This document shows positions 24,434-29,056 of a DNA stretch of 64,000 nucleotides, piece after piece. Below the pieces are notes generated by a model, which worked only from the letters and a program-made list of their open reading frames with translations, was not told where the DNA came from and searched no databases. This stretch comes from Escherichia coli (GTDB lineage Bacteria; Pseudomonadota; Gammaproteobacteria; Enterobacterales; Enterobacteriaceae), in assembly GCF_003334355.1 (NCBI RefSeq), contig NZ_QOWP01000012.1; one strand, written 5' to 3'. Each line of letters starts with the position of its first letter. Position 1 is the first letter of the stretch. The position numbers and the translations under genes were made by a program.

Positions 24434-24691
24434 ATGCAAACCGTTATTTTTGGTCGTCCGGGTTGCCCTTACTGTGTGCGTGCAAAAGATCTGGCTGAGA
24501 AATTGAGCAATGAACACGATGATTTTCAGTATCACTATGTAGATATTCGTGCGGAAGGGATCACTAAAGAAGATCTACAACAAAAGGCAGGTAAACCCGT
24601 AGAAACCGTGCCGCAGATTTTTGTCGATCAGCAACATATCGGCGGCTATACCGATTTTGCTGCATGGGTGAAAGAAAATCTGGACGCCTGA
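24434..24691 (+). CDS. grxA: Glutaredoxin 1
   Basis: 85 aa from the ATG at 24434; CPYC active site (GRPGCPYCVRAK). Confidence 0.93.
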   Translation: MQTVIFGRPGCPYCVRAKDLAEKLSNEHDDFQYHYVDIRAEGITKEDLQQKAGKPVETVPQIFVDQQHIGGYTDFAAWVKENLDA

Positions 24692-24701
24692 TCGTCTGAC
24701 A

Positions 24702-24736
24702 AGCCCTCGCGTTGAGGGCTTTACTGATTTTTTCTG
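24702..24736. terminator. Bidirectional intrinsic terminator between convergent grxA and ybjM
   Basis: Hairpin AGCCCTCGCG-ttg-AGGGCT followed by TTACTGATTTTTT. Confidence 0.55.
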
Positions 24737-25098
24737 TGCTGTGGTTTAAACAAACTACTGATAAATAAGAAACACAGTGCCCCCAGCGCACACCAGAACA
24801 CCGCACTTAATAACCATGCCAGCTCTTGCCAGAATGAGCGCGTCGGTGAAAAAAACAGCCGCATAATGAGCATCGAACAGGGTGCCGCCAGCATTGCGCC
24901 AAACAGAGGTTTCAGGACTTCTCTACGCTGTGAAAAGAAGCTGGCGACTGCTCCAGGAAGAATGAAAAATAGCAAGCCGATTTCAGGATGCCCGGCAGCC
25001 CGAAAAGCGCCTTTCATGTGCGTCGCCAGAAAAAGGCACACCACAATGAAGAGGACAAAACAGCAGATTGCCCCCGCCCAACGTTGTTTATGTTTCAC
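24721..25098 (-). CDS. ybjM: Uncharacterised inner membrane protein YbjM
   Basis: 125 aa; four hydrophobic segments. Confidence 0.85.
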   Translation of the reverse strand: MKHKQRWAGAICCFVLFIVVCLFLATHMKGAFRAAGHPEIGLLFFILPGAVASFFSQRREVLKPLFGAMLAAPCSMLIMRLFFSPTRSFWQELAWLLSAVFWCALGALCFLFISSLFKPQHRKNQ

Positions 25099-25367
25099 TC
25101 GTTCCTCCTGACACTGCGTCTATCGAACACATTTTTCGCCAGTGTGGCGTTCAGTAAGATAAAGCCGCTTCGCATTCCATGCTAATATAGGCCAACGCAA
25201 TTCATATAGCCGTTGATACCTAATGTGATTACACTAGTAAAATATATTGTTACTTTACTATCGTTTAGGTGCGCTGAATGAATCTGCGCCCTGAATTCTG
25301 GTAAAAAACATTATCGTAAATTACCATTTCTTTCAACAGCTTACTAGTAAACAAGAAGTTAGCCTCC

Positions 25368-27053
25368 GTGAATATAAACGTCGCCGAATTGTTAAATGGG
25401 AATTACATTCTGTTATTATTTGTGGTCCTCGCGCTTGGGCTATGTCTCGGAAAGTTACGACTTGGTTCGATCCAACTGGGTAATTCCATTGGCGTTTTAG
25501 TCGTATCGCTGTTATTAGGCCAACAACATTTCAGCATTAACACCGATGCGCTTAATCTTGGCTTTATGCTGTTTATTTTCTGTGTTGGGGTTGAAGCCGG
25601 ACCGAACTTTTTTTCCATTTTTTTTCGCGATGGGAAAAATTACCTAATGTTAGCACTGGTGATGGTTGGCAGTGCGCTGGTGATCGCCTTAGGGTTAGGT
25701 AAGCTGTTTGGCTGGGATATTGGCCTGACGGCCGGTATGTTAGCAGGCTCTATGACGTCGACACCGGTTCTGGTCGGTGCTGGCGATACACTGCGTCATT
25801 CCGGCATGGAAAGCAGGCAGCTCTCACTGGCACTGGATAATCTGAGCCTCGGGTATGCCTTAACCTATTTAATCGGTCTGGTGAGTTTGATTGTTGGTGC
25901 GCGTTACTTGCCGAAATTGCAGCATCAGGACTTACAGACCAGCGCCCAGCAAATCGCCCGCGAACGTGGCCTGGACACTGATGCCAACCGTAAGGTTTAT
26001 TTACCGGTGATCCGCGCCTATCGCGTCGGCCCGGAGCTGGTGGCCTGGACCGACGGCAAAAATCTGCGTGAACTGGGTATTTATCGACAAACCGGCTGCT
26101 ACATTGAACGTATTCGACGTAACGGGATTCTGGCAAATCCAGACGGTGATGCCGTGCTACAAATGGGCGATGAAATAGCGTTGGTAGGCTATCCCGACGC
26201 CCATGCCCGACTCGATCCCAGCTTCCGTAACGGTAAAGAAGTTTTCGATCGTGACCTTCTCGACATGCGTATCGTCACTGAAGAAGTGGTCGTTAAAAAC
26301 CATAACGCTGTAGGTAAACGTCTCGCACAACTGAAGTTGACCGATCACGGTTGCTTCCTTAACCGCGTCATTCGTAGCCAGATTGAGATGCCGATAGATG
26401 ACAACGTCGTGCTTAACAAAGGTGACGTTTTACAAGTCAGCGGTGATGCCCGTCGCGTAAAAACCATCGCCGATCGCATCGGCTTTATCTCGATTCACAG
26501 CCAGGTCACTGACCTGCTGGCATTTTGCGCCTTCTTTGTTATTGGGCTGATGATCGGGATGATCACCTTCCAGTTCAGCACATTCAGTTTCGGCATGGGG
26601 AACGCTGCCGGGTTGTTATTCGCCGGAATTATGCTGGGCTTTATGCGTGCTAACCACCCGACCTTCGGTTACATTCCGCAGGGTGCATTAAGCATGGTGA
26701 AAGAGTTCGGCTTGATGGTGTTTATGGCAGGCGTTGGTCTGAGCGCCGGTAGCGGTATTAATAACGGCCTGGGCGCGATTGGCGGTCAGATGTTGATTGC
26801 CGGATTGATTGTCAGTCTGGTGCCCGTGGTTATCTGTTTCTTGTTCGGTGCTTATGTATTGCGAATGAACCGCGCGCTGTTGTTCGGCGCAATGATGGGC
26901 GCACGTACCTGCGCGCCGGCAATGGAGATCATCAGTGATACAGCTCGCAGTAACATCCCGGCGCTGGGCTATGCGGGCACCTATGCAATCGCCAACGTCC
27001 TGCTGACGCTGGCAGGGACAATCATCGTCATGGTATGGCCAGGATTAGGATAA
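25368..27053 (+). CDS. ybjL: Putative AAE-family transporter YbjL with two TrkA-C (RCK_C) domains
   Basis: 561 aa from an apparent GTG start at 25368; hydrophobic N- and C-terminal halves around a soluble central region. Confidence 0.88.
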
Positions 27054-27165
27054 AACTGAAGTTGCCCTGAAAATGAAATTTTTTTGCACAACCGCAGAAC
27101 TTTTCCGCAGGGCATCAGTCTTAATTAGTGCCACTGCTTTTCTTTGATGTCCCCATTTTGTGGAG

Positions 27166-27209
27166 CCCATCAACCCCGCCATTTCGGTTCAAGGTTGATG
27201 GGTTTTTTG
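27166..27209 (+). terminator. Intrinsic terminator downstream of ybjL
   Basis: CCCATCAACC...GGTTGATGGG 10-bp stem followed by TTTTTTG. Confidence 0.55.
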
Positions 27210-27227
27210 TTATCTAAAATTTATCTA

Positions 27228-27764
27228 CTACCCTGCAACCCTCTCAACCATCCTCAAAATCTCCTCGCGCGATAGCGGCTTACGGTCGGTGACAAAATGC
27301 AGCGTCATCCCCTCAATAAACGCATCAAGCGCGCGGGCGGTTCCGGGTTCAAACCATTGTTCGAGCGTTTGCTGACTGCGCTGCATCCAGTTTTGCATTA
27401 CCGTTTTTAATAGCGGTTTTCGGCTAGCCAGCGCGTAGAGCTGGTACATCAGCTCCATATTATCCGGCGTTGCAACCTGTGAGCTGTAGATCATATCGGT
27501 GATAGCCTGGCATGCGCCTTGAGCATCACTAACATCGCTAAAAAATGCCTGATATTGCCGGGACATAATCTCAGTAAAACTGCTGAACGCCTCCAGCAAC
27601 AACTCATCAATTCCTGAAAAATAGTAGGTCATCGATCCCAACGGTACCCCGGCAAGGGTAGCAATTTTGCGGTGCGTAACAGCATGTATTCCGTAAAGTT
27701 TCACCGCCTCCAGCGTGGCCTGGATAATTTTTTCTCGCCGTTGCGGATCGTTAGCGCGACGCAT
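27228..27764 (-). CDS. rcdA: TetR-family transcriptional regulator RcdA (YbjK)
   Basis: 178 aa from the ATG (complement at 27762-27764) with GAGGA upstream; TetR-type N-terminal helix-turn-helix. Confidence 0.88.
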
Positions 27765-27847
27765 GTCATTTCCTCTGTCTGCAATTGTGTACAAATGTAC
27801 ACAACCTTGCTAATGTTGTCTTCCCTCTTCTTATTTTGACGTGATCT

Positions 27848-29056
27848 ATGACCGTAAATTCTTCACGTAATGCATTGAAACGCCGAACCTGGGCGCTGTT
27901 TATGTTCTTCTTTTTGCCAGGCCTGTTAATGGCGTCCTGGGCAACCCGTACGCCTGCTATCCGCGATATTCTCTCTGTCTCGATCGCTGAAATGGGCGGT
28001 GTTCTCTTTGGTCTGTCGATCGGTTCGATGAGCGGTATTCTCTGCTCGGCGTGGTTAGTGAAACGCTTTGGGACACGTAATGTCATCCTGGTCACGATGT
28101 CCTGCGCATTGATCGGGATGATGATATTAAGTCTGGCACTCTGGCTGACATCGCCCCTGCTCTTTGCCGTTGGTCTCGGCGTCTTTGGGGCAAGTTTTGG
28201 TTCTGCGGAAGTGGCGATAAACGTTGAAGGTGCCGCCGTTGAGCGAGAAATGAATAAAACGGTTTTGCCGATGATGCACGGTTTTTATAGCCTGGGCACG
28301 CTGGCAGGCGCTGGTGTCGGGATGGCACTGACGGCCTTTGGCGTTCCGGCAACGGTGCACATTTTATTGGCGGCGCTGGTAGGTATCGCGCCTATTTATA
28401 TCGCCATTCAGGCAATCCCTGACGGTACGGGCAAAAATGCTGCCGATGGCACCCAGCATGGCGAAAAAGGCGTACCTTTTTATCGCGATATCCAGTTGCT
28501 GCTGATTGGTGTTGTGGTGCTGGCGATGGCCTTTGCCGAAGGTTCTGCCAACGACTGGTTACCCTTATTAATGGTTGACGGTCACGGTTTTAGCCCCACT
28601 TCCGGCTCGCTGATTTATGCCGGTTTTACCCTGGGGATGACCGTTGGACGCTTCACTGGCGGTTGGTTCATCGACCGTTACAGTCGCGTTGCCGTGGTTC
28701 GGGCCAGTGCGCTAATGGGGGCGTTGGGTATTGGGCTGATTATTTTTGTCGATAGCGCCTGGGTCGCTGGGGTGTCTGTTGTACTCTGGGGAATGGGTGC
28801 CTCGCTGGGCTTCCCGCTGACCATTTCTGCCGCCAGCGATACCGGCCCCGATGCACCAACCCGCGTCAGTGTGGTAGCAACGACCGGTTATCTGGCTTTC
28901 CTCGTCGGGCCGCCGCTGCTGGGCTATCTCGGCGAACATTATGGATTACGTAGTGCAATGCTGGTTGTACTGGCGCTGGTTATTCTCGCGGCTATTGTCG
29001 CGAAAGCCGTCGCCAAACCCGATACCAAAACGCAGACGGCGATGGAGAATAGTTGA
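27848..29056 (+). CDS. ybjJ: MFS transporter YbjJ
   Basis: 402 aa; 12 predicted transmembrane segments. Confidence 0.88.

Follow-up and report, generated by a model that had tools for sequence, protein, structure and literature searches.

YbjL of Escherichia coli, a member of the aspartate:alanine exchanger family that is probably not an aspartate:alanine antiporter

The gene ybjL of Escherichia coli is known, named, widely annotated and assigned to a known family, and the question that it raises is which substrate its product carries. In RefSeq the product is called an aspartate:alanine antiporter, a name that PGAP assigns through the model NF003440, while the curated K-12 record for the same gene reads 'putative transport protein'. 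YbjL is a remaining orphan transporter in the best-studied bacterium, and a substrate for it would close a small gap in the transport inventory of E. coli. It would also be of practical value in producing or tolerating glutarate, adipate, succinate and glutamate. The structure and mechanism of the family were published in 2025 for AspT (PMC12462496). What we add is a caution about the RefSeq product name, which looks too specific, and a pair of charged residues, Glu76 and Arg513, as a testable candidate for a specificity determinant.

The ybjL gene and its conservation

The DNA analysed is a stretch of 64,000 nucleotides from an E. coli contig (NZ_QOWP01000012.1), referred to here as the window, and all coordinates are positions within it. 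The gene occupies the following position.

25368..27053, plus strand: ybjL coding sequence, 561 amino acids, GTG start, TAA stop at 27051-27053 (open reading frame list, RefSeq annotation and NF003440)

A single open reading frame fills exactly this interval, its GTG being the earliest start codon available once the preceding stop is passed, and RefSeq places ybjL at the same coordinates. The encoded protein is identical to K-12 YbjL (b0847), the two genes differing by seven synonymous nucleotides and no amino acids, and the name ybjL given in a preliminary description of this DNA, which was made from the sequence alone, is therefore right. The YbjL equivalog model NF003440 (PRK04972) aligns over residues 1-561 of 561 with a score of 1178.1 bits, against a cutoff of 645. 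The start codon is preceded by AAGAAGTTAGCCTCC (25345-25370, plus strand), in which the Shine-Dalgarno candidate is weak and purine-rich; together with the GTG start this suggests that translation initiation may be low.

A weak start context of this kind, and the absence of a clear single-gene phenotype in standard conditions, would fit a decaying or non-functional paralogue with no present role. Conservation effectively refutes that reading, which we regard as extremely remote. Of 5426 complete E. coli genomes, 5419 contain at least 80% of a 2.2-kb query around ybjL, and many E. coli chromosomes are 100% identical to this stretch. The differences from K-12 are all silent, and ybjL knockout phenotypes exist. 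Across the genera of the Enterobacterales amino acid identity is 88-96%, with the Yersinia, Rahnella and Erwinia orthologues at 88-91% of the E. coli protein, and the pocket residues described below do not vary among the 117 close orthologues. The central soluble domain (S-domain) is 90.8% identical among the Enterobacterales orthologues, compared with approximately 88% for the membrane halves; a soluble domain conserved at least as well as the membrane part argues that it is functionally important. For an orphan transporter such conservation is unusually high.

Domain architecture and relation to AspT

The protein divides into two membrane repeat units that flank the soluble domain, as listed here.

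25368..25937, plus strand: membrane repeat unit 1, residues 1-190, TM1-5 and re-entrant hairpin HP1 (Pfam, hydropathy, self-alignment, structure model)
25938..26519, plus strand: cytoplasmic soluble (S) domain, residues 191-384 (hydropathy; beta-rich alpha/beta folds in the model)
26052..26213, plus strand: TrkA_C (RCK_C) domain 1, residues 229-282 (PF02080, E = 8e-10; sequence match to the RCK_C domain of BusR in the PDB; structural matches)
26277..26480, plus strand: TrkA_C (RCK_C) domain 2, residues 304-371 (PF02080, E = 4e-9; internal repeat with domain 1)
26520..27050, plus strand: membrane repeat unit 2, residues 385-561, TM6-10 and hairpin HP2 (Pfam, TIGR01625, structure model)

Mean Kyte-Doolittle hydropathy is +0.88 for residues 1-190 (9.5% charged), -0.30 for residues 191-384 (28% charged) and +1.14 for residues 385-561 (5% charged). 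The soluble centre is thus about 194 residues long, in agreement with the preliminary description, which had proposed hydrophobic N- and C-terminal halves separated by a soluble region of about 200 residues. The Pfam domain Asp-Al_Ex (PF06826) is found twice, at residues 17-182 (E = 8e-40) and 385-555 (E = 1e-43), and the duplication domain TIGR01625 covers residues 390-541. Membership of the AAE family and a tandem pair of TrkA-C domains had also been proposed; the two Asp-Al_Ex and two TrkA_C matches, and the end-to-end homology with AspT described below, bear both out. PF02080 and PF06826 occur together in all 120 YbjL relatives among the matches listed, and the family as a whole amounts to 3915 clusters at 50% identity (E<=1e-3).

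Both parts of the protein are internally duplicated. When the protein was aligned with itself, the two soluble sub-domains, already described as containing duplicated segments, were 33% identical over 45 residues (E = 8e-6; Smith-Waterman z = 8.5, equalled in 0 of 300 shuffles). Self-alignment also revealed a duplication of the membrane halves that the earlier description had implied and left unstated: half 1 and half 2 (residues 381-561) are 26% identical over 170 residues (E = 5e-8, z = 5.9, 0 of 300 shuffles). Both duplications exceed chance.

An AlphaFold2 monomer model built on a 92-sequence family alignment has a mean pLDDT of 92 and a pTM of 0.86. Its helices in the first repeat span residues 5-28, 39-52, 59-114, 118-128/132-143 (HP1) and 149-184, and in the second repeat 383-397, 411-429, 438-497, 502-512/516-526 (HP2) and 530-560. 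This topology of five helices plus a hairpin, a beta-rich soluble pair and again five helices plus a hairpin is that of AspT. The AspT structures, from Tetragenococcus halophilus, are the only solved relatives of YbjL (PMC12462496). Residues 6-555 of YbjL match the solved AspT sequences with E-values of 9e-47 to 6e-45 (phmmer), the full-length alignment being approximately 26% identical, and the model superposes on the AspT structures over its whole length with a TM-score of 0.71-0.78 (Foldseek). The two proteins are similar in length and share the two inverted 5-TM-plus-hairpin repeats and the central tandem RCK_C-like S-domain. The next matches of the model are to the RCK_C proteins GsuK, BusR, KhtT, TrkA and MthK, and to CitS.

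AspT is a homodimer that works by an elevator mechanism, in which TM1-3 and TM6-8 form a static dimerisation domain while TM4-5, TM9-10 and the two hairpins form a mobile transport domain (PMC12462496). A single substrate pocket lies between the hairpin tips and is lined by T130, S132, Y167, L431, T496 and S498, and the S-domain, on the cytoplasmic side, forms a dimer and turns in step with the transport cycle (PMC12462496). The equivalent hairpin tips of YbjL are encoded as follows.

25755..25763, plus strand: HP1 tip, Thr130-Ser131-Thr132, where AspT has T130-Q131-S132, with substrate contacts
26904..26915, plus strand: HP2 tip, Arg513-Thr514-Cys515-Ala516, where AspT has D495-T496-L497-S498, of which T496 and S498 contact the substrate

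Much of the pocket scaffold is shared, AspT T130, Y163, Y167, L431, F434, G439 and T496 corresponding to T130, Y163, Y167, L449, F452, G457 and T514 of YbjL.

We consider it reasonably likely that YbjL is a secondary transporter of the Aspartate:Alanine Exchanger family (AAE/AAEx, TC 2.A.81) that acts as a homodimeric, RCK_C-regulated elevator and carries an anionic C4-C6 dicarboxylate or acidic amino acid. The protein would reside in the inner membrane, its chain forming two inverted, homologous five-helix-plus-hairpin repeats, with a single putative substrate pocket made by the hairpin tips T130-S131-T132 and R513-T514-C515-A516 together with Y163/Y167 and L449/F452. By analogy with AspT it is most likely a homodimer in which the hairpin-bearing transport domain would slide against a static dimerisation domain. 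The paired RCK_C domains would face the cytoplasm and, upon binding a ligand, would modulate the protomers or coordinate one with the other. Dimer, elevator motion, cytoplasmic regulation, substrate class, coupling ion and direction of transport are in this scheme all inferred.

Other known systems resemble YbjL in part. CitS of the 2HCT family and other two-hairpin elevators, which have been compared with AspT (PMC12462496), likewise form the substrate site from two re-entrant hairpins within a dimeric elevator, as seen in AspT and presumed for YbjL. They differ in having no RCK_C domain, in being coupled to Na+ and in having no detectable sequence similarity to YbjL, and the structural match of CitS to the membrane part is weak (TM-score 0.40-0.42). 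The halves of the S-domain resemble, by Pfam TrkA_C and by structure, the RCK_C domains of K+ channels and transporters, BusR, KhtT and KtrA, several of which bind c-di-AMP or nucleotides. Synthesis of c-di-AMP is not known from E. coli.

The product name and the substrate

Is YbjL then the aspartate:alanine antiporter of its RefSeq name? Functional equivalence to AspT would be consistent with the name assigned by PGAP, with the full-length homology and common fold, and with a pocket in which four of the six substrate-contacting positions are identical (T130, Y167, L449 and T514) and a fifth, S132 to threonine, is conservatively replaced. We nevertheless judge it very unlikely, on the strength of a curated model, the gene context and the remaining pocket residues, in addition to the non-committal K-12 record. 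The AspT equivalog TIGR03802 scores YbjL at 416.7 bits, 130 bits under its curated cutoff of 546.95, while the comparison sequences P0163, P0155 and P0249 reach 608, 579 and 570 bits.

The genes for P0163 and P0155 each lie 16-34 nucleotides from an aspartate 4-decarboxylase gene (TIGR03801, 775 and 739 bits respectively), a pairing of AspT-class genes with aspD that was seen in these two sampled genes. The neighbours of ybjL (ybjM, grxA, rybB and rcdA) include no aspartate 4-decarboxylase gene, and a tblastn search with AspD found no homologue in the 64-kb window. Since the pairing of aspD with aspT is what makes aspartate:alanine exchange useful, the missing aspD counts against such a role for YbjL. 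We know of no aspartate beta-decarboxylation pathway in E. coli that would make this exchange useful.

The presumed pocket also departs from AspT. Besides Q131 to S131 and S498 to A516, the charge is reversed at two positions, R76 becoming E76 and D495 at the HP2 tip becoming R513. The first of these is encoded here.

25593..25595, plus strand: codon of Glu76 in TM3, where AspT has Arg76 (alignments)

AspT R76 is involved in substrate transport according to the title of a paper, and D495 stands at the tip of HP2 next to the substrate-contacting T496; neither R76 nor D495 is mentioned in the AspT structure paper (PMC12462496). All 117 close YbjL orthologues have E76 and R513, as do P0121, P0123 and P0124, NF003440-class members that are 50-60% identical, and the next clade beyond this class has Q76/M513. 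Within a 109-sequence sample, the five proteins with aspartate or glutamate at position 513 all have lysine or arginine at position 76 (Fisher p = 7e-4, uncorrected for phylogeny). These five are AspT, with R76, and four of four further members with K76, and their scores reach the AspT cutoff or come very close to it. The resulting signature, a basic residue at 76 with an acidic HP2 tip (495 in AspT, 513 in YbjL), was derived here and is not curated; YbjL lacks it, and P0249 is an exception that passes the AspT cutoff with E76/G513. The Glu76/Arg513 pair, as the charge reversal of Arg76/Asp495, could thus provide a testable handle on specificity within the family, as judged from the alignments.

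RefSeq therefore probably misnames YbjL in calling it an aspartate:alanine antiporter. The name stands on thousands of enterobacterial genomes and finds no support in the AspT equivalog model, the gene context or the pocket residues.

Nor does YbjL belong with its E. coli paralogue. YidE (b3685; NF003007; TC 2.A.81.1.5) is of the same family and domain architecture and is also an orphan, but it is only 24% identical to YbjL and has Q76/M513 with the hairpin tips TNTP and TDPP. The YidE equivalog NF003007 scores YbjL at 209 bits, against a cutoff of 449.

The preliminary description had called the substrate unknown. This stands in so far as the literature that we searched contains no direct or reconstituted YbjL transport assay, and is slightly outdated in that indirect genetic and engineering evidence exists. 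Some E. coli lines evolved on glutarate or adipate lost ybjL function by mutation, and growth on both diacids improved further when ybjL was deleted in addition to kgtP (10.1101/634105). The gain in tolerance of external glutarate and adipate upon loss of ybjL suggests that YbjL lets C5/C6 dicarboxylates in. Mutations in proV arose in the same lines (10.1101/634105), and the phenotype may have an indirect cause such as an osmotic or expression burden. The paralogue YidE has been used as a glutarate exporter, its overexpression improving export (PMC12861294), and papers from the AspT group describe AAEx members that carry succinate (SucE1) and glutamic acid or glutamate. SucE1, the succinate exporter of Corynebacterium glutamicum, is placed in the AAE family by those papers and carries a dicarboxylate, the class of substrate favoured here for YbjL. 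The genes around three distant YbjL-like genes, P0121 (60% identity), P0123 (51%) and P0125 (46%), revealed no metabolic partner, the contigs being short and the neighbours (uvrB, a sensor kinase and unannotated open reading frames) uninformative. The glutamate export work of Matsudaira in 2020 and patents from Ajinomoto reportedly used ybjL from E. coli or Pantoea, and they are the sources of the claim that E. coli ybjL itself exports glutamate or succinate.

Our best guess is that YbjL transports a C4-C6 dicarboxylate anion or an acidic amino acid, such as glutarate, adipate, succinate or glutamate, rather than aspartate and alanine in exchange. A variant of this places the main function in export, YbjL being chiefly an efflux valve through which the cell releases an anion of its own, such as glutamate or succinate, and taking up glutarate and adipate as a side activity of a reversible carrier. 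The family includes the succinate exporter SucE1 and the cited glutamate exporter, YidE improves glutarate export when overexpressed, and the RCK_C pair would be a plausible gate for a release valve; the greater tolerance of external diacids after loss of ybjL points instead to a net inward flux in those conditions, and we hold the export reading to be possible but doubtful. Returning to the anion carrier in general, a more specific version would make YbjL a ligand-gated carrier of glutamate or C4-C6 dicarboxylates, with specificity set by the clade-specific Glu76/Arg513 pair and with the highly conserved RCK_C domains sensing a cytoplasmic signal other than c-di-AMP, such as K+, a nucleotide or the transported anion. 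This is speculative, and on present evidence we think it unlikely. If true, it would couple the flux of anions to osmotic and K+-glutamate homeostasis.

Neighbourhood, promoter and transcript ends

The genes around ybjL run in the order rimK, nfsA and ybjC (all minus strand), grxA (plus), ybjM (minus), ybjL (plus), rybB (plus), rcdA (minus), ybjJ (plus) and ybjI (plus). The preliminary description had set ybjL between the oxidative-stress genes grxA and ybjC-nfsA and the regulator rcdA; all of these are nearby, and ybjM and rybB, which lie between them and ybjL, had been left out. The following elements lie outside the coding sequence.

25213..25243, plus strand: sigma-70 'constitutive' promoter of ybjL, TTGATA-19-TAAAAT (hexamers as published in PMC3946193, verbatim at 25213-25218 and 25238-25243)
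25254..25305, plus strand: predicted hairpin in the putative ybjL 5' UTR (RNA fold, weak evidence)
27097-27123, plus strand: sigma-E-like promoter, GAACTT-N16-TCTTA, upstream of rybB
27130-27208 by transfer of the K-12 annotation, or 27133-27211 by Rfam, plus strand: rybB sRNA gene (RF00110, 105 bits, E = 6.5e-22)

A simple promoter scan did not report the ybjL promoter, as the scan covers spacers of 16-18 nucleotides and the spacer here is 19. Its position would imply a 5' UTR of about 118 nucleotides. In a massively parallel reporter study the ybjL promoter falls in the (0, 3) class, with no activator sites, three repressor sites and no factor named (PMC7567609). The RNA of 25250-25380 is predicted to fold at -25.9 kcal/mol (z = -2.43), and 5 of 200 shuffles fold as well. 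An Rfam scan of 24600-27900 (E<=1) found no element upstream of ybjL, riboswitches included; a UCA1 match inside the coding sequence is meaningless at 21.5 bits against a gathering score of 80 bits. An intergenic mutation, A889923G, was fixed in enrofloxacin-adapted E. coli lines (PMC6458618). It corresponds to window position 25264, reads T to C in the sense orientation of ybjL and would disrupt a U-A pair predicted in the 5'-UTR hairpin.

Directly 3' of grxA, at 24701-24721 on the plus strand, AAGCCCTCGCGTTGAGGGCTT makes a strong terminator-like hairpin with a T-run behind it. With this hairpin in place grxA and ybjL are probably not co-transcribed in E. coli, despite their conserved adjacency. 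On the other side comes the sigma-E-dependent sRNA gene rybB, in the same orientation as ybjL and separated from its stop codon by 76 nucleotides (80 if the Rfam boundaries are used). In the interval between the stop and rybB a simple terminator scan gave no convincing candidate. A hairpin and T-run at approximately 27168-27208 were considered as a ybjL terminator and rejected, being the terminator of RybB. With no separate terminator evident, the RybB terminator may also be where transcripts of ybjL stop.

The order grxA-ybjL-rybB is kept in Yersinia and Erwinia, where ybjM and rcdA are absent and the next protein-coding genes are PAP2 phosphatases rather than rcdA. On the same strand, rybB lies 99 nucleotides past the ybjL stop in Yersinia enterocolitica (L011, 6788-6868) and 56 nucleotides past it in Erwinia amylovora (L012, 6745-6810). 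Were YbjL the ligand-gated carrier outlined above, this conserved ybjL-rybB tandem would link the transcript of a transporter to an sRNA of the sigma-E envelope-stress response.

In E. coli NC101 the prophage NC-MV lies between ybjL and rcdA (PMC12803456). A megablast search with 25100-27300 returned 6557 places in 5430 records, with at most four places in any genome. The extra places may reflect insertions like NC-MV in the ybjL-rcdA spacer (27054-27227), or a repeated segment.
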